From an uncultured Chloroflexia bacterium (lineage in GTDB: Bacteria > Chloroflexota > UBA6077 > JACCZL01), in NCBI GenBank assembly GCA_963765765.1, contig CAVXYC010000014.1, positions 128,001-192,000 of the forward strand: 64,000 nucleotides of DNA, written 5' to 3'. The notes beneath the pieces are model-generated. The model saw only the letters and a list, made by a program, of their open reading frames with translations. It searched no databases and was not told the DNA's origin. Shown piece by piece: positions 994-50,987 of the stretch; positions within the stretch are counted from its first letter, which is position 1; every line of letters starts with the position of its first letter. A program made the position numbers and the translations under genes.

Positions 994-2223
994 CTAGTGC
1001 GCCAGCGCGTCGCGCCTACGCTGGAGAAAAGCCCGCTCAGTGGCGTTTTCTGTAAGGGCGATGGCTGCGTCATATGACTGTGCAGCCTCGGCAGTACGGC
1101 CCAGACGGAGGTAGAGATCGGCGAGTACCGAATGGTAGAGGTAGTACCCACTCAAGTTGAGCGATTCGACGAGCCGCAGCGCGTCCGTCGGGTCGCCCAC
1201 TTCAGCAATGGCCACTGAGCGGTTGAGTGCCACGATCGGATTCGGCGCGAATTCCAGCAACTGATCGTAGAGCGTCACAATCTGTCGCCAGTCCGTGTCG
1301 GCCGCGGTGGGTGCGTCACTGTGTACGGCATTGATGGCCGCCTGGATCTGGTACGGCCCTGGCTGATTCCGTCTCAGGCATCGTCGAACGAGATCCTGGC
1401 CCTCGGCGATCAGCTCGCGGTCCCAGAGTGCTCTGTCCTGATCCCGTAACAACACGAGCTCCCCGGTCGAGGAGACTCGGGCACGTCGTCGAGACTCGAT
1501 GAGCAGCATGAGCGCGAGCAGCCCCATAACTTCTGACTCGTCGGGCATCAATTCATAGAGAAGTCGACCTAGACGAATCGCCTCCAAGCAGACATCGTCT
1601 CGGATGAGCTGGTCCCCTGAGCTTGCGGTATACCCCTCATTGAAAATGAGATAAATGACGCCCAGGACACTCACCAGCCGCCCGGGAAGCTCCGATTCTC
1701 GGGGAACGCGATAGGGAATCCGGGCATCGCGGATCTTGCCCTTGGCCCGAACCAGTCGCTGTGCCATGGTTGTCTCAGCGACAAGAAAAGCTCGAGCGAT
1801 CTCCGACGTCGTGAGCCCACCGAGAAGCTTGAGTGTGAGCGCCACTTGAGCTTCTGTCGCAAGCGCTGGGTGGCAGCAAGTGAAGACCAGCCTGAGTCGG
1901 TCGTCGCGCACGGCTCCCTCCTCGGGAAGGTCTTCATCGCCCAACATCAACGTCGCCTCGATCTGACGCCCGCCTCGCGTAGATTCCCTGCGCAGCCAAT
2001 TGATGGCGCGATTGCGCGCGGTGGTGATGATCCAGCCCGCTGGGCTCCGCGGTAGACCTTCCTCGGGCCAACGTCGCAATGCCACGGTGAAGGCTTCCTG
2101 CACAGATTCCTCGGCGAGATCGATATCGTGAAACGCACTAACGAGTACGGCCACAGAGCGGCCGTACTCTTCGCGAAACACTCGCTCGATCGTCGACGGT
2201 TGGATGGCACCTTCATTAGACAT
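994..2223 (-). CDS. ECF sigma factor with C-terminal TPR extension (ECF42 type)
   Basis: Region 2 AEESVQEAF..ALRRWP..GWIITTARNRAI; DDRLRLVFTCCHPAL; GPYQIQAAINAVH; TGATG overlap with YCII gene. Confidence 0.9.
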   Translation of the reverse strand: MSNEGAIQPSTIERVFREEYGRSVAVLVSAFHDIDLAEESVQEAFTVALRRWPEEGLPRSPAGWIITTARNRAINWLRRESTRGGRQIEATLMLGDEDLPEEGAVRDDRLRLVFTCCHPALATEAQVALTLKLLGGLTTSEIARAFLVAETTMAQRLVRAKGKIRDARIPYRVPRESELPGRLVSVLGVIYLIFNEGYTASSGDQLIRDDVCLEAIRLGRLLYELMPDESEVMGLLALMLLIESRRRARVSSTGELVLLRDQDRALWDRELIAEGQDLVRRCLRRNQPGPYQIQAAINAVHSDAPTAADTDWRQIVTLYDQLLEFAPNPIVALNRSVAIAEVGDPTDALRLVESLNLSGYYLYHSVLADLYLRLGRTAEAAQSYDAAIALTENATERAFLQRRRDALAH

Positions 2224-42397: not shown

Positions 42398-43135
42398 TCA
42401 GGGCGAAGGGAACTCGCTACTCGCTACTCGTTCGACCGATACGTCATCCATAGAATCGTTGAGCAGGCCCATCTCCATAGCTCGCACGGCCGCTTGCGTG
42501 CGGTCGGAGGCGTTGAGCTTGGCGATAATGTGCTCTACATGAGTCTTTACGGTGCTCACCTGAAGAGAGAGCGAGCGCGCGATCTCCGGATTTGTGAGTC
42601 CGCGCACCAGAAGCCTCAGCACGTCGCGCTCGCGCGGCGTCATCGACTCAGGGAGAAGCTTTGGCGCGGGCGGATCCTCACTCGCGAGGCGCTGAACTAA
42701 CCGCAATGCGACGTCGCCAGGCAACGACGTGTCGCCATGTGCCACATGCCGTACCGCCGTCACGATCTCCTGTTTGGCAGCGTCCTTGAGGAGATAGCCG
42801 GATGCGCCGGCCCGTACGGCTTCCAGGAGATAATCCGGGTTTTCAACGATCGTGACCATGATGACAGATGTGGCTGGGCACGTCTTCTTGATCGCTCGAG
42901 TCGCTCGCAGACCATCGATATCTGACATGCGAATGTCCATGAGCACGACGTCTGGTTTGAGCTTTCGTGCAAGCTGCATGGCCTTCCGTCCACTCGATGC
43001 CGTGCCCACAACCTCAAATCCCGGCTCGCTCTCCAGAATGCTCACCAACCCCGCGCGCGCAAGCTCGTGATCGTCCACCACGAGCAAACGAAGCGTCTCA
43101 ACACGAATCGGAGCAACTCGCGAACTCATAATCAT
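42398..43135 (-). CDS. NarL/LuxR family response regulator
   Basis: LLVVDDH, DVVLMDIRM, GASGYLLK, TPRERDVL..GLTNPEIA..TVKTHV. Confidence 0.93.
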   Translation of the reverse strand: MIMSSRVAPIRVETLRLLVVDDHELARAGLVSILESEPGFEVVGTASSGRKAMQLARKLKPDVVLMDIRMSDIDGLRATRAIKKTCPATSVIMVTIVENPDYLLEAVRAGASGYLLKDAAKQEIVTAVRHVAHGDTSLPGDVALRLVQRLASEDPPAPKLLPESMTPRERDVLRLLVRGLTNPEIARSLSLQVSTVKTHVEHIIAKLNASDRTQAAVRAMEMGLLNDSMDDVSVERVASSEFPSP

Positions 43136-46100
43136 TTCCCCTGCGTAGACGGTTCCAGAGGAACGGTGACTGACACGCGCGACCCCTTGCCACGCCGGCT
43201 CTTGATCGTGAGCTGACCACCCATCCAGGAAACTCGCTCCTCCATGCCTCTCAGGCCGATCCGCTCTCGATCATCGATACGTTGACGAGCCTTCTTTGTG
43301 TCAAAGCCGCGGCCCCAATCCTGAATATCAAGCTGGATGCTGTTTACCTGGAGCGAAAGTCGCATCTCCACCCGCGTGGCGCCGGCGTGCTTACGCACGT
43401 TTGTGAGTGCCTCCCTGCCGATACTGAACAGCGTGGTCTCGACCTCTTGAGGGAAACGCCTTGATCCGAGATTCTCCTCGTAGGTCACCACATATCCATC
43501 GGCTTTGAGCGCTTCCATTTCCTGGCGCAACGCGGATGCGAGTCCAAGGTCGTCCAGGACTGTGGGTCGCAATCCGGCGATCACTCGTCGCGCCTCGCGT
43601 ACCGTCTGCTGGGCCGTCTGGCGAGCGGCATCGAGCTCATGGCGCCCCATCTCGGTCCGTGGTCGGTTACGCGCCGCGAATGCCTCGAGATGCTGATGCG
43701 TGGCCGCGGCCACCTGCGCTAGGCTGTCATGCACTTCATAGGCCACGCGGCGACGTTCTTCGTCCTGGGCTCGGAGGAGTTTGCCGACCAGCGTCTTCAT
43801 CTGTTGAGCGCGATCCGACAATTCCGCGTATAGCCGTGCGTTCTCAATGGCAATTGCTGCATGGTCGGCAAACAGGCACAGAAACTCAAGATCTTCCCTA
43901 CTGAAGGGCTCACCGTTGGTGGTCCGGCCAACGGTGATCACACCAATCAGACGCTCGTTGAAAACGATTGGGGCGGACATGACTGCTTGCATGTCGACTT
44001 GCTCCATTACGTATCCGAGTCGCCGGGGAAACCGCGGGTAATCGTTTTCGAAATCGCCCTTGCGAGATCGAGCCACCCGTCCACTCATCCCCTGGCCCAG
44101 TTTGATCATCCGCTGCGGGTCTGACTCTTTAAAGCCGAGGGCGATGCGTCTGCGCAGACCACGATTCGCCTCATCCCATTCGAAAATCACGCTGGTCTGG
44201 CAGTTGGCCAGCGCACGGGCCCGCTCGATCGTTAACTTCAGGACCGTCTCGATATCGAGCTCCCGAATGATGTCCGACGTCAAATCTCGAATCGCCTCGA
44301 GCTGCTGGCGTTCCCTCAGCTCTCGCTGGTAGAGCCGAGCGTTTTCAATGGCGATTGCCGCGTGATCGGCAAATAGACTGAGCAGCGCGAGCTCATCATT
44401 AGAGAACGGGTCTCCCTCGTCCACGCGAATGATGGTGATCACTCCGACGAGCCGGTCCTGATAAAGGATTGGCGCTGCCAGGGCGGCCTGGGCATAGAAC
44501 AACGCTCCGGCGCGAGGGAGGGCGTGCTCCCATTCCGGATAGTTGTTGACAATCACTCCCTCACGCCGGGCCGCCGCGATCCCCGATGCACCCTCACCGA
44601 GTTTGCGGCGACGCGTAAAGTCCCGGGCCAGCGGTACTGTCGTAGCGCTGGGCGCCAATGTCTGGGACACTTCATCCCACAGATAGACCCAACCAAAGGA
44701 TCCAGGGATGAGATCGATTGCTCGCTCAAACGTGAGCTGAAGCACACGCGCGAGATCGAGCTCGCGGGCGATCTCCGCGGCGATATCGCGAATGGCTTCC
44801 ACCTGACGTCGACGCTTCTGCTCCTGCTCGAAAAGACGCGCATTTTCTATAGCCACGGCCGCATGCTGGCCAAAGAGTCGGAGCGTCTCCTGATCCCGAT
44901 CCGTGAACGGCTGCCCGGGTTTGGTTCTGCCGATCCCGATCACGCCAATGAGGCGATCCTGGTAGAGAATTGGCTCTGCCATAAAGGCAACCGCGGGACC
45001 TGCCTTTTGGTATGACGGAAGTGGTTCCGGCCACTCGCGAGGGCCGTTTACCACGATACCGCGACGCACCTGGACGACCTTCCCAACAATGCCGACACCA
45101 GGCTTGAGTCGCATCCCGTCCAGTTCCGCAGCGGCAGCGGGCCAGGCGACCGGACGTATCTCTTGAACGTCCTCATCCCAGAGAAAGAGCGCACCACGGT
45201 CACCCTGGAAAAGTGCAGCCGCGCGCTGCCAGATGATGTTCAACACATTGGGTAGGTCAAGCTCTCGAGTGATCTCAGTTGAAATCTCTCTGAGCGCCTC
45301 GAGCTGGCGCAACCGCTCCTGTTCCCGCTCGAAGAGGCGTGCATGCTCAATGGCTACGGCCGCATGGTCGGCGAAGAGCTGCACCAGATCCTGCTGTCCG
45401 TTCGTAAATCCAGCCTGCCCGACCTCTCTGCTAAGGGTGATGACTCCGACAAGCTGCGACTGATACATCACCGGAGTAGAAAGCGCTGAGCCAAGTACGA
45501 GACGATCGATGAGTCTCGGCAGTGCATCTTCCCAGTGCTGGTAATCGTTCACGACGACGGTTCGACGCTCGAGGGCAGCAATTCCCGTGATTCCTTCGCC
45601 CAATTGGAGTGGTTGCGGGAGAGGCAAGCGGCCACCACGATGGGTGCTTCGTGGAATGAGACGCTGTGATGGCTCGTCCCAGATGTAAAGAATGCCGGTC
45701 GAGTCGTCTGCGATTTGAGCCACGCGACGGATGATGAGATCGAGCAGTCGCGAGAGGTCCAGCTCATTCGTAAGCTCAGCGGCCACTTCACGGACCGCAT
45801 CAAGCTGGCGGCGGCGACGCTGCTCCCGCTCGAGCAAGCGGGCGGAATCCATGGCCTGAGCCATCCGACGACCCAGCTCCTGGCCGAGAGCCGCGTCGTC
45901 CGCGTCATAACAGCGGCTGGGGTCATCAGTGAGAAATGTCAGCGTCCCGAGCATCTCCCCGCGTAGCTTGATGGGGACGGAGCAGCCACTCATTGCGGGC
46001 AGCAGATTGTCGCCGCTGGACTCATTGTTCGTTCCGTAGTAGATAGCGACGGTGCCAGAGTCCAGTGCCTTGCGGGGCAAATCCAACACCTCTCGTGAGT

Positions 46101-46735
46101 GACCACGGAAGGGCACTCAGTGCTTGTGTCATAGCCGCGTCTTGGTGCACCGCCACGATCTGAATCAGCTCACCATCGACGTCGACCACGTGAACGAGAC
46201 ACGAGGATCCCAATGTGGGCAAGGCGAGTCGGGCGAGCTCATCCAACGCCGCAACGTAATCACTGGTCGAGGTAAGCACCGTGCTAGCCGCGGTGAGAAG
46301 CGCAAGCCGCTCACTCGCTCGATGACCGTTGGGAACATCAAGAGCCGATTGCCTCGAGCCGATTACCGCGGAAACCGGCTCGAGCCGTAGCAGCACTTCG
46401 TCGAGATTAGCGAGTGGAGTACTGGTGATTCGGATGGGCAACTGCTCTCCATCCGATTTGCGCACCACCCAGGCTCCGGACCACTCCAGCGAACCTTCCC
46501 CATGAATCAGTCCAAGAACGTCAGCCGACTCAGAGGCCGATGTGAGTAAATCGCCGACGCGGCGGTCCACAAGATCCATCGTGCGAAAGCCGAGGAGCGC
46601 GCCGGCGGAACGATTGGCAAACGCACACGTTGCATCACACGCTCGCACGAGAAGAAGTGCGTCAGGCAGCGACTCGAGCGTAGCTCGAAAAAGCGACTCA
46701 GCCGCCTCACGCTCGAATGCGGTTGTCGTCGTCAC
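43132..46735 (-). CDS. Cytoplasmic sensor histidine kinase PAS + 5 GAF + HisKA_3/HATPase, frameshift near 46110
   Basis: PAS LESLPDA..FANRSA; repeated FADHAAIAIENARL; ERRRVAYEVHD, REALTNVRKHA, DWGRGFD, GLRGMEER. Confidence 0.9.
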
Positions 46736-47732: not shown

Positions 47733-47779
47733 CGTGGGGAAATGCCGATTGGCAGCATCCGGTGCCAGCGGGCCGAAGC

Positions 47780-47902
47780 TCAGGTCAGCAGTCGCTTGGC
47801 CACCCAGAGTATTCCAATGATCACAACAACGGCCACGATCATCTCGATCGGACCACCGGCCCCAGGCATCCCCACGCCGCCGCTGCTACCTGCTGAAACC
47901 AT
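47780..47902 (-). CDS. 40-aa single-TM protein MVSAGSSGGVGMPGAGGPIEMIVAVVVIIGILWVAKRLLT
   Basis: Gly-rich N-terminus, hydrophobic helix, KR tail; weak RBS. Confidence 0.5.
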   Translation of the reverse strand: MVSAGSSGGVGMPGAGGPIEMIVAVVVIIGILWVAKRLLT

Positions 47903-47927
47903 GAGTCTCTTCTAATGTCTACAGAAT

Positions 47928-47954
47928 AAAAAAGAGGGGCCATCCGGCCCCTCT
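47928..47954 (-). terminator. Intrinsic terminator of the candidate RNA
   Basis: GAGGGGCC-GGAU-GGCCCCUC followed by UUUUUU. Confidence 0.88.
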
Positions 47955-48104
47955 CGATCAGTAAGCAATTCCGGTGCCTGCGTCGGTATTCGATCGCCTG
48001 GCGATCAATGTTCGCTGCCTGCTACTTACGCGGGCAAAGCGTCTTTCGTCCGACCTTGCAACCGGGGTGATAGCACCTGGGCCCCACCCTCGCAGAGCGG
48101 GGCC

Positions 48105-48164
48105 TTACCTGTCGACTTGAAATCTCCTCAGCAGTACGATCAGACTTCTGCGTTGCATTCGCAT
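48105..48164 (-). CDS. Short ORF (MR)MQRRSLIVLLRRFQVDR within the candidate RNA
   Basis: GGGAGG 3 nt before first ATG and 9 nt before second ATG (48158). Confidence 0.35.
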   Translation of the reverse strand: MRMQRRSLIVLLRRFQVDR

Positions 48165-48208
48165 ATTCCTCCCATCTGCTGGTGTACAGGGATAACCCTG
48201 TTACTTTC

Positions 48209-48237
48209 ACTATACTCGCCATCCGGGGTGCACGCAA
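48209..48237 (-). promoter_or_regulatory. sigma70 promoter
   Basis: TTGCGT-N17-TATAGT. Confidence 0.75.
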
Positions 48238-49038: not shown

Positions 49039-50001
49039 CTAATGAGCTGCCGTCGTTGGATCAGTCAACAACGCCAGAAACGCTTGGTCTGAGATGACCC
49101 TGCGCCGCTGAATGCGCGCCCGTCCCTGCAAGGCGCCGGGGATGAGTAGTACGCCATAGGCCAGGCCTCGCAGCGTAGCGCGAGCAGCCGCCCCTCGCCA
49201 GGCCTCCAGGGCCTCACCTGCTCGGTGCATCTGGGCGCGCAGAATGATGCCCAGAGATTGGCGAAGAACGAATGTGGGAAAGCCGCGGGCCATCAGCCGA
49301 ATGGAGTTCTTGGCCACATGGAAGCTCGCCAGCGGTCCGCCGCCGGTTTCGCTGCCAAGGTGGTTCACCCGAGCGCCTGGCACGTATTGGCAGCTCCAGC
49401 CTCTGAGCTGCGCCCGCAATCCCAGATCAACGTCTTCGAGGTATGAGCCATAGCCCTCATCAAGAAGACCCACGTCCTGGAGCATCGATCTTCGATATGC
49501 GGCGGCGCCGCCACATGCTGAAAAAACTGGGCCGGGCAGATCGTGCTGGCCACGATCCCACTCGCCCGCACCACGCTGCCTGGCGAGTCCGTTTCGTCCC
49601 AGGAGATCGCCTGCCGAATCCAGAACGGTCCCGTCGCGATTGAGCATTTTGGAGGCGCAAGAGCCTGCCCGCGAATCCGTTCCGAATCCCTCAATCAGAT
49701 GCAGCAGCCAGTCCGGGTGGGCCACCGCGTCGTTGTTCAACAGGCACAGGATCTCTCCTCGCGCCGCCCGAAGACCGGCGTTCGCATTGCCCGTGAAGCC
49801 TAGATTTCGTGGAAGGGCCAAAAGTCGCATGTCGGAATAGCTCGACGCCATCAGCTCTCGCGTGCCGTCAAGCGAGCCACCATCCACCACGAGAATCTCG
49901 CTTGAACGGTAGCTCTGCGCACGCAACGAATCCAGGCAGCTCTCGAGAAGGTGCCGCCCATTCCAGGTGGGGATGACAACGGAGACCAGTGGATCGTGCA
50001 C
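49039..50001 (-). CDS. GT2 family glycosyltransferase
   Basis: VSVVIPTWNG, VVDGGSLDG, NLGFTGNANAG, LLNNDA, YLEDVDLGLRA. Confidence 0.9.
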   Translation of the reverse strand: MHDPLVSVVIPTWNGRHLLESCLDSLRAQSYRSSEILVVDGGSLDGTRELMASSYSDMRLLALPRNLGFTGNANAGLRAARGEILCLLNNDAVAHPDWLLHLIEGFGTDSRAGSCASKMLNRDGTVLDSAGDLLGRNGLARQRGAGEWDRGQHDLPGPVFSACGGAAAYRRSMLQDVGLLDEGYGSYLEDVDLGLRAQLRGWSCQYVPGARVNHLGSETGGGPLASFHVAKNSIRLMARGFPTFVLRQSLGIILRAQMHRAGEALEAWRGAAARATLRGLAYGVLLIPGALQGRARIQRRRVISDQAFLALLTDPTTAAH

Positions 50002-50062
50002 GCGGGGTATCGAAATTAGCCTGATATGCCCATGCGCGGAGAGGAGATCAAGGGCGCCACTA

Positions 50063-50987
50063 TCATGCCAGAGAGGCAATGTAAGCTGAGGCCGACGATC
50101 CACCAGAGTCGTGACCCTGTCGCCGGCTCGGCCGCGCATCGCTTCAGCGGTTAAGCCATACTCGGCTTGAATTCGCCTTACCCGTCGATCAAGCTGGCTG
50201 TTGTAGTTCTCAGGCGCGTGGATTTGCACGTAGGCGCGTTCATATCGATCGCGAAGCTCCGGGAAGTCCCGCGCGATGAACCGAAAGTAATGTTCGCGAA
50301 CCGTCGCGCCCAGCCGCAATGTCGTGTAAGTAAAGAAGGCGGCACCGTGGTTTCGGGCTTCTCTGGCAACCGCTCCAATGGAGTCCGACGAATCCGTGAT
50401 GCCGGGGAGGATAGGCGCCAGGATGACGCCCGCCGGCACGCCGGCCAAGTTGAGCTGCTCCATAACATGGAGGCGCTTGAGCGGATTGGCGGTGCCGGGC
50501 TCAAGCACGCGCCAGAGGTCCTGATCAACGGTTGTAATGGTGAAGAAGATTCGGACCGTGGCGCTGGCCGCGATCTCACTGAGCAGGTCGATGTCGCGAA
50601 ACACCAGCGGTGACTTCGTCACAAGGCTCATCGGGTTGGCGAAAGTCGCGTAGTGTCTCCAGCTACACCACGCGTGAGGCCGAAGCGGCCCTCAGCGGGC
50701 TGGTATGGGTCAGTCGCGGTACCGAGTGCAATCAGGTCTGCTTTCCAGCTCGGCCGGCGCAACTCCTGGCGAAGCACTTCCGGGAAATTGCTCTTCACCA
50801 GGATGCGCGACTCGAAATCCGTGCCGCCATTCCCGTGCTCAGCAAGCTCGTAGTAGGCACGGGCGTAGCAATACTGACATGCATGCACACAGCCAACGTA
50901 CGGATTCAGCGACCATCGGAACGGCATGCCCTGCACTCTATTGAGCGCCGACTTGCATCGAATGGGAACATATTCCGCGCGCGCCAT
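50063..50987 (-). CDS. SplB-like (Rv2578c-family) radical SAM protein, frameshift near 50655
   Basis: LNPYVGCVHACQYCYAR (CxxxCxxC), LGTATDPYQPAE, VTKSPLVFRD, LEPGT, APILPGITD, terminal QLTLPL. Confidence 0.88.

Follow-up and report, generated by a model that had tools for sequence, protein, structure and literature searches.

A structured RNA family of Chloroflexota that carries a mini-ORF and may park ribosomes

The question raised by this locus was what kind of RNA is made from it. The locus lies at positions 47928 to 48237, minus strand, of a 64,000-nucleotide (nt) stretch of contig CAVXYC010000014.1 from an uncultured Chloroflexia bacterium (the whole stretch is called the window), and a sequence-only reading had proposed a novel non-coding structured RNA with a pseudoknot and its own promoter and terminator. 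Overlooked in that reading were a Shine-Dalgarno (SD) sequence, GGGAGG, and an in-frame open reading frame (ORF). On the minus strand the order is promoter-like hexamers, a 5' hairpin, the SD sequence, this mini-ORF, a hairpin designated H1, approximately 110 nt of further helices, and a terminator (Table 1). It was deduced with very high confidence that this architecture defines an undescribed RNA family that is widespread in Chloroflexota. The best reading of the family, on which we are evenly divided, is that of a new mini-ORF-bearing structured RNA on which a ribosome would pause and which would serve as a translation-coupled regulator or sensor. Below, L numbers denote homologous loci and G numbers denote genomes; G000 is the window's own genome, and L034 is the window's nearest relative.

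The first data bearing on the question were searches for known classes. The Rfam 15 covariance models (4227 families), run with Infernal, gave no match at the gathering score in the whole window, only three chance-level matches at E<=10 between 47700 and 48700 (E 4.9-6), and, at 20 homologous loci, tRNAs and a 16S end with nothing on the element itself. The proposal that the RNA is not transfer-messenger RNA (tmRNA), RNase P RNA, signal recognition particle RNA, 6S RNA or a riboswitch was borne out by these data; the loose resemblance to raiA RNA that had also been noted was not recovered even at E<=10. With regard to tmRNA, the element has neither a match to RF00023 nor a tRNA-like domain; an SD and an ATG of its own are present. 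The idea that it replaces tmRNA was dropped because Infernal detected a canonical tmRNA gene in the same genome (RF00023, C10:274588-274944, 112.9 bits, adjoining smpB) that ARAGORN had missed. Beside this gene, the SmpB match of G000 falls in two overlapping pieces in different frames (C10:274588-275394, profile positions 2-54 and 41-143). No RF00013 match to 6S RNA was found in the window's own genome with a model that detects only 5 of 14 control genomes, and the minimum free energy (MFE) structure of the element is multi-branched, not a rod. The Pfam and NCBIfam models matched none of the eight longest mini-ORF peptides at E<=10. The searches made of the literature on Chloroflexi small RNAs and leader peptides did not turn up the element, and the papers matching its motif strings were unrelated.

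A BLASTN search of the 310-nt stretch against 41 genomes gave, besides the self match, only three weak partial matches, centered on window positions 48138-48076, and a model of sequence plus structure was therefore required. The loci matched by BLASTN share one layout: an SD sequence, a start codon 9-10 nt further on, 15-18 codons ending in [F/W]-Q-V-D-R-TAA, and a GC hairpin after the stop. A degenerate pattern of Q-V-D-R-stop plus hairpin start found nine sites in 185,579 species (one genome per species); the six sites with an SD and a mini-ORF were all from Chloroflexota, and the other three had neither. A similar pattern applied to metagenomes retrieved 27 contigs, of which 10 carried the module, 3 were doubtful and 14 were due to chance. 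Covariance model R1, spanning the SD to H1, matched 23 of 39 genomes of the order. Model R2, rebuilt from 40 aligned matches, matched 56 of 66 genomes of the class with one to three copies each (13 of 15 high-quality genomes; 40 of 46 genera), so that the homologs anticipated by the sequence-only reading were found. Several genomes assembled as a single contig have one copy. Of 151 genomes sampled evenly across the phylum, R2 matched 38; outside the class it matched 22 of 135, and these matches cluster in a few families (6/6, 4/5 and 6/7) with many other families having none. Three unpublished genomes are included (G006 in the BLASTN, R1 and R2 class counts, G049 in the R2 class count, and G100 in the phylum sample), and dropping them lowers each tally by one; the first locus of G006 is the same sequence as the public locus L010, and its second, L066, is among the 78 elements described below. 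In the scans made, the family was confined to Chloroflexota.

The window's own genome holds three paralogs. The initial regular-expression scan of that genome returned the window copy alone, and the covariance models added two, at C15:355508-355603 (MHIKLNVLELRFQVDW) and C15:152625-152718 (MHVKLIVLQHRFEVDQ). Tandem double units were present in two metagenome loci, L032 (about 1102-1354, minus strand) and L033 (about 1750-1978, plus strand). The second unit of L033 ends in RYQVDLTGP, and its stop falls within its hairpin. Some copies (L062, L064 and L069) have tRNA genes or a 16S rRNA end no more than about 1-1.5 kb away, with no established pattern.

The conserved core of these elements has the appearance of the end of a translated reading frame. 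The coding set comprised 78 elements with 77 distinct cores, and its consensus was [W/F/Y]-Q-[V/I]-D-(x)-stop, with the proviso that 13 of the 78 came from a pattern imposing Q-V-D and the other 65 had passed a regular expression requiring Q-x-D. In the Gln, Val/Ile and Asp codons the first two bases were kept and the third varied. The aromatic codon was TGG in 63 elements, TTY in 7, TAT in 1 and another codon in 7; Gln was encoded by CAG (57) or CAA (21), Val/Ile by GTC (28), GTG (20), GTT (20), GTA (4), ATT (5) or ATC (1), and Asp by GAC (52) or GAT (26). Averaged over the columns of the last 11 codons, entropy was 1.03, 0.84 and 1.53 for the first, second and third codon positions. The residue following Asp was nearly free, with more than 17 kinds observed; it was absent in 7 elements, and 3 elements had 6-7 extra residues. 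Upstream of the core, many members have K/R-P, five or six mostly hydrophobic residues, G/C, and V/R. The N terminus varies and conservation is limited to 10-15 positions at the C terminus, as seen in the peptide lists and the entropy profile, which is the pattern of an arrest peptide. Judged from these codon patterns, it is the amino-acid sequence of the ORF end, [W/F/Y]-Q-[V/I]-D, that is conserved.

The length of the mini-ORF ranges from 13 to 22 codons across the family. Its start in the window was assigned to 48158 because the ATG at 9-nt spacing is the only one in frame in L034, and the spacing from SD to start is likewise 9-10 nt in L002, L003 and L004. Between the window and L034 five codons differ, three of them synonymously, and the last 12 codons show synonymous changes only. 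From such comparisons the mini-ORF was judged to be probably translated.

Hairpin H1 was supported by covariation. In the 40-sequence model alignment, 90.7% of the cells pair and 8 of the 10 pairs show compensatory change, although this alignment was model-fitted and is thereby biased toward structure. The covariation score was reached by none of 500 shuffles, and shifting the H1 partner by 1-3 columns lowered pairing to 37-58%. The position of H1 proved particularly informative. Among the 68 elements with a single post-Asp residue, the stem starts 5-7 nt past the Asp codon in 60; for the remaining 8 the script chose an inner stem, and the interrupted outer stem was found by eye to start at 6-7 nt. 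Where the stop directly follows Asp (7 elements) H1 still lies at 2-7 nt, and where the frame extends 6-7 residues past Asp (3 elements) it lies at 6-7 nt. By comparison of these sequences, the position of H1 is tied to the Asp codon wherever the stop lies.

These data were weighed against a purely non-coding structured RNA, in which the ORF would be a by-product of constraints at the RNA level. Such an RNA would be consistent with the strong folding (z -5.66, below), the covariation of H1 and an abundance typical of stable RNAs, and in one subfamily the RNAalifold structure (58 pairs, 16 compensatory) includes a long-range closing helix and a hairpin within the ORF, pairing the Val-Asp codons with upstream codons. 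It does not predict the three-periodic variation with invariant first and second codon bases, the maintenance of Arg through AGG/AGA/CGN changes, the recurrence in distant members of an SD followed 9-10 nt later by an in-frame start, or the use of all three kinds of stop. This explanation was considered very improbable, and the non-coding assignment of the sequence-only reading is not upheld, the conserved core being a translated-looking mini-ORF with codon-periodic conservation.

Expression was deduced from public sequencing runs. Part of the stretch is contained in 20 runs. Of these, 17 are metatranscriptomes of soil or rhizosphere drawn from different studies, and each holds 39-42% of the sampled words. 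In RNA run X2, contigs on 47967-48173 had a word depth of 229-1938 with 0-1 differences from the window, and the adjoining 47748-47904 had a depth of 3.2 with 13 differences. RNA run X4 gave a single contig covering 47970-48144 at a depth of 71, with an Illumina adapter abutting 47970, and a DNA run bridged 47875-48024 with all differences downstream of 47943, in the terminator and spacer. From these depths and differences it follows that the RNA body is very abundant and is more conserved than its flanks; the transcript expected by the sequence-only reading thus exists as identical RNA contigs at high depth in soil metatranscriptomes, and the family is expressed at a very high level. The contig limits at 47967-47970 and 48144-48173 are a weak hint of the RNA ends, because hairpins and strain variants break contigs. 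The 5' hairpin falls outside the abundant contigs.

The transcript was next considered as a unit of its own. The hexamers TTGCGT-N17-TATAGT claimed as its promoter are present, and promoter-like hexamers occur at the equivalent position in homologs; as a promoter they are a weak match (8/12, the -35 only 3/6), which is why the promoter scan makes no call here. Across 76 homologs the mean best upstream match was 7.95/12 compared with 6.13 in shuffles, and 32 of the 76 reached at least 9. The intrinsic terminator that had been predicted was called by the terminator scan, and a terminator-like hairpin with a T-rich tail was present in 34 of the 39 elements first compiled, 64-344 nt past the stop (mostly ~110-215). 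Neighbor clustering at 16 loci (+/-6 kb) found nothing shared beyond close relatives, and conserved convergent genes start 18-133 nt past the terminator in L052/L059/L060 and in L047/L064/L066/L067. Since its neighbors are unconserved and often convergent, the element was taken to be stand-alone, and since convergent genes follow it and no neighbors are shared, it is not generally the leader of a downstream gene. The claim of an independent transcription unit gains from the same three observations, namely the recurring hexamers, the terminator that follows and the often convergent neighbors. The element thereby resembles dual-function small RNAs in being an expressed stand-alone transcript with its own putative promoter and its own terminator. 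The locus was taken to be a very abundant stand-alone RNA gene of ~230-275 nt on the minus strand.

An SD, a short ORF, hairpins and an intrinsic terminator are also the classical layout of a ribosome-dependent attenuator, in which the abundant RNA would be the terminated leader of downstream genes, here a 40-residue membrane peptide (47902-47780) and PAS/GAF kinase genes. In agreement with this, a small membrane ORF lies just past the terminator in the window, L034/L030 and L020, and RNA depth drops from >200 to about 3 across the terminator. The downstream genes vary among subfamilies, however, the next gene is convergent and conserved at several loci, tandem units occur in L032 and L033, and neither a conserved downstream operon nor a regulatory codon run was found. 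The attenuator was therefore regarded as improbable, and a local cis effect on the membrane peptide gene may exist in the window, L034/L030 and L020. In the window this ORF (MVSAGSSGG...VAKRLLT, 47780-47902, minus strand) has one hydrophobic helix and starts 26 nt past the terminator; in L034/L030 and L020 the element is likewise followed by homologs of this ORF, 39-40 residues long. It is covered by a low-depth RNA contig of a relative.

For the stand-alone element we hypothesized a pause mechanism, which is offered tentatively and is held somewhat less likely than not to be correct. A ribosome would translate the mini-ORF and would be made to pause on reaching the last codons. If the P site then holds the Val codon and the A site the Asp codon, H1 would begin 11-13 nt past the first P-site base, and it would act as a roadblock at the mRNA entry channel. 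The bacterial mRNA channel extends 11 nt past the first P-site base, and stem-loops placed at the entry channel in such a geometry block A-site tRNA binding and translocation. This would leave the invariant Q-V-D codons in the E, P and A sites of the ribosome just meeting H1, and the conserved aromatic residue would sit just within the exit tunnel. The last steps may be slowed further by rare arginine codons and by the position of Asp, two residues ahead of the stop. AGG and AGA account for 30 of the 35 Arg codons after Asp and for 48% of all Arg codons of the mini-ORFs (4 of 5 in the window), compared with 8.5% in the long ORFs of the window's own genome, the one genome whose codon usage was used. 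TGA is the stop in 7 of the 78 mini-ORFs, compared with 46% genome-wide. In E. coli, rare Arg codons ahead of the stop and the identity of the last two residues reportedly impair termination. The parked ribosome would decide the fate of the RNA, namely its stability, the opening of H1 and the folding of the 3' domain, and the RNA would be a dual-function regulator or sensor coupled to translation, neither a plain mRNA nor a plain non-coding RNA.

Related events were considered and rejected. A -1 frameshift signal fits the spacing of H1 (5-9 nt is expected), but the element has neither a slippery heptamer (X XXY YYZ) nor a downstream frame that is conserved. Read-through, frameshifting or hopping into a longer frame was rejected since downstream frames are not conserved. 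Switching of the 3' arm of H1 to the terminator or to the first strand of the 3' domain was not general upon inspection by eye.

The most serious competitor of the pause is a plain micro-protein gene, in which the 13-22-residue peptide ending in WQVD(x) would be the product and would bind a protein as SpfP does, with the hairpins stabilizing the mRNA. Conservation at the amino-acid level, a properly spaced SD, the high abundance of the RNA and the dispensability of the 3' domain in five elements are all as expected of such a gene, and functional peptides of 14-15 residues from small RNAs have precedent in PMC12310071. The residue after Asp is almost free, yet H1 holds its distance to the Asp codon, and this combination fits a decoding event better than a recognized C terminus. 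Furthermore, rare codons would be odd in a highly expressed protein, and no partner gene is conserved nearby. The micro-protein was deemed unlikely.

Several observations weigh against the reading of the element as a translation-coupled RNA with a ribosome pause. The support for translation is an evolutionary signature, and pausing and any targets are hypothetical. The fixed distance between Asp and H1 may be historical, reflecting point mutations with no indels in a few related lineages. Predicted accessibility was 0.33 for the SD and 0.43 for the AUG compared with an average of 0.35 for the RNA, and nothing therefore marks the ORF as efficiently initiated. Of 48 model matches inspected, 8 failed the Q-x-D filter; 4 of these still read C-R-W-Q-V-D, and the other 4 are true deviants (stop lost, W to C, W-D-F-D, and F-E-V-D). 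The enrichment of AGR depends on the codon usage of one genome, and the RNA contigs show neither strand nor exact RNA ends. A long-range closing helix common to all elements was not borne out in a rough test (6.82 base pairs (bp) compared with 6.34 bp in shuffles), and a role of the 3' domain cannot be general because this domain is nearly absent in five elements.

The coordinates of all parts of the element are collected in Table 1.

Table 1. Parts of the element in the window and the basis of each assignment
Feature	Position	Strand	Basis
Promoter-like hexamers TTGCGT (48237-48232) and TATAGT (48214-48209), 17-nt spacer	48209..48237	-	Sequence read
5' hairpin ACAGGG-UUAU-CCCUGU, 5' of the ribosome binding site	48186..48201	-	In MFE structure
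Shine-Dalgarno GGGAGG; ATG 48158 lies 9 nt further	48168..48173	-	Sequence read
Mini-ORF MQRRSLIVLLRRFQVDR, 17 codons plus TAA (48107-48105)	48105..48158	-	Reading frame and homologs
Hairpin H1 GGCCCCGCUCU-GCG-AGGGUGGGGCC, 11 bp, GC-rich, abuts the stop, 6 nt past the Asp codon	48080..48104	-	
3' multi-helix domain: closing pairing, GUCGG/CCGAC, hairpins UGCCCGC/GCAGGCA and UGAUCGC/GCGAUCG	47971..48079	-	MFE structure
Single-stranded tail AAUUGCUUACUGAUC with proposed pseudoknot partner UGCUUAC (47967-47961)	47956..47970	-	
Intrinsic terminator: stem 47955-47932 plus T-run	47926..47955	-	Terminator scan (10 pairs, 7 G-C)
Region matched by very abundant identical metatranscriptome contigs	47967..48173	-	Contig comparison

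The sequence-only reading had stressed the folding of the RNA, and much of this was confirmed. The fold of 47928-48205 (minus strand) has an MFE of -121.3 kcal/mol compared with -93.8 +/- 4.9 for shuffles (n=200; z -5.66; 0/200 as low), and it includes most of the helices that had been folded by hand. The proposed hairpins ACAGGG/CCCUGU and CAGCAG/CUGCUG, the 11-bp hairpin and those of the 3' part are all present in the sequence and were taken to be real because the MFE lies so far below that of the shuffles. Homologs have a hairpin of different sequence at the place of the 5' hairpin, e.g., CCAGCGCUGG.

The 3' junction domain, on which that reading had placed its emphasis, recurs in the same topology in L034 but differs among subfamilies. 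It is 85-160 nt long in most elements and 24-48 nt in five, and it is alignable only within subfamilies. For this domain the window's sole close relatives are L034 and L030, both of which fold to the same topology; L020 was too divergent for the alignment. In L034 all 5 pairs of GUCGG/CCGAC are kept and 5 of the 6 pairs of the closing helix GGUGCU/GGCACC, as counted from a MAFFT alignment in which H1 and one hairpin were out of register. The junction-closing helix as claimed is largely retained in the relative, but it competes with a CCGGU/ACCGG pairing in the MFE structure. In one subfamily (L045, L046, L051, L054, L065, L070 and L010; alignment A9, columns 19-45), the Val-Asp codons pair with upstream Val/Ile-Glu/Asp codons, and in 6 of these 7 sequences there is covariation between the third Asp-codon base and the first base of the codon upstream.

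The claimed pseudoknot was not supported. The complementarity of 7 bp between the loop at 48029-48023 and the tail at 47967-47961 exists but is only mildly unusual, since 3-5% of shuffled tails also reach 7 bp (P about 0.03-0.05), and in L034 the longest run is 3 bp. Its 3' partner lies at or beyond the ends of the abundant contigs (47967-47970). Of the covariation looked for, that of H1 is strong, and the pseudoknot is not conserved.

The genes around the element were examined last. A histidine kinase of 994 residues with four or five GAF domains (43132-46116, minus strand) overlaps by 95 nt a 237-residue PAS ORF (46022-46735, minus strand), and synteny between the PAS part and the element extends to L034 and L020. 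At 49039-50631 (minus strand) lies a family 2 glycosyltransferase ORF with a weak N-terminal match to radical S-adenosylmethionine (SAM) enzymes, and the 119-residue ORF preceding it (50628-50987, minus strand) has another; the E values of 0.006 and 0.001, respectively, are under the curated cut-off, and the two ORFs may be a single gene split by a frameshift. These fragments bear on a further explanation, in which the mini-ORF encodes the precursor of a ribosomally synthesized and post-translationally modified peptide (RiPP) whose aromatic-x-x motif would be the cross-linking site of a radical SAM enzyme, for instance that encoded ~900 nt upstream. The occurrence of W, F or Y at one position of a short conserved motif agrees with such a precursor, as do the weak radical-SAM-like matches. 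No maturase or other gene was conserved beside the element, however, with no modifying enzyme beside most loci in the 16 loci at +/-6 kb and the survey of convergent genes; the one to three copies per genome are scattered, and the spacing of H1 and the huge abundance of the RNA would be left unexplained. A RiPP precursor is hardly credible on these data.

Few groups of soil bacteria are more abundant than the Chloroflexota, whose regulatory RNAs are, to our knowledge, almost unstudied. The RNA described here is present in most genomes of a class, stands about two orders of magnitude above neighboring mRNA in soil metatranscriptomes, and has a body that is identical in samples of many studies. 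It offers a compact natural module of four codons and a hairpin at a fixed distance. If the pause is true, the module would be a stalling signal uniting the nascent chain with an mRNA roadblock in a stand-alone RNA and not in a leader; if the peptide is the product, few conserved bacterial proteins would be shorter. A bolder proposal, which we regard as improbable, is that the family constitutes a new class of ribosome-engaging RNA, stand-alone, extremely abundant and conserved across the phylum, whose sole invariant is a ribosome-parking module (a hairpin facing the entry channel, with a Trp inside the tunnel and Q-V-D filling the E, P and A sites), and which senses translation status or the supply of Asp-tRNA or parks ribosomes for dormancy in soil. 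Such a ribosome-parking RNA would rank with tmRNA or 6S RNA and not with gene-specific leaders.

The element was finally compared with known systems. The arrest leaders TnaC, SecM, MifM, Erm and Cat lie upstream of the gene that they control, and their arrest has been shown experimentally. The element is like these leaders in having its conserved residues within about 13 positions of the C terminus and a variable N terminus, an Asp codon at or near the presumed stalling site, and structured RNA directly downstream. It differs in having no conserved downstream gene, and its arrest is hypothetical. Like tmRNA, it is structured and abundant and contains a short ORF whose stop precedes a helix, but it lacks the tRNA-like domain and has its own SD and AUG. 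The frameshift stem-loops of dnaX and HIV meet the entry channel 11-13 nt past the first P-site base, as described in PMC7282821, and H1 is positioned at the same distance. Unlike in those signals, CAG-GUN-GAY contains no slippery heptamer, and no alternative downstream frame is conserved because a 1-nt indel just past H1 separates the window copy from L034.

The closest parallels in layout are small RNAs that also encode peptides. In Sinorhizobium meliloti, rnTrpL is described as an attenuator-derived small RNA with a functional 14-residue leader peptide, peTrpL, where both RNA and peptide are functional and the system is linked to translation stress (PMC12310071, PMC7968998). Like the element, rnTrpL is short and ends at an intrinsic terminator, and both carry an SD, a mini-ORF (~14 codons in rnTrpL) and hairpins. 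Unlike rnTrpL, which is a trp leader with Trp codons as the sensor, it is stand-alone, carries the Q-V-D and hairpin module, and has no sequence similarity. Spot 42/SpfP (109 nt, 15 residues), RNAIII/delta-hemolysin (514 nt, 26 residues) and SgrS/SgrT (227 nt, 43 residues), as given in PMC12310071, are stand-alone, abundant, structured RNAs with their own promoter and terminator and a very short ORF near the 5' end, as the element appears to be. There is no homology to them, and the part conserved in these RNAs is the base-pairing region, whereas in the element it is the end of the ORF together with H1, the 3' domain being variable and no conserved seed for base pairing having been identified. 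Homologous to none of the systems compared, the element is assigned to a new family of mini-ORF-bearing, putatively regulatory RNAs.

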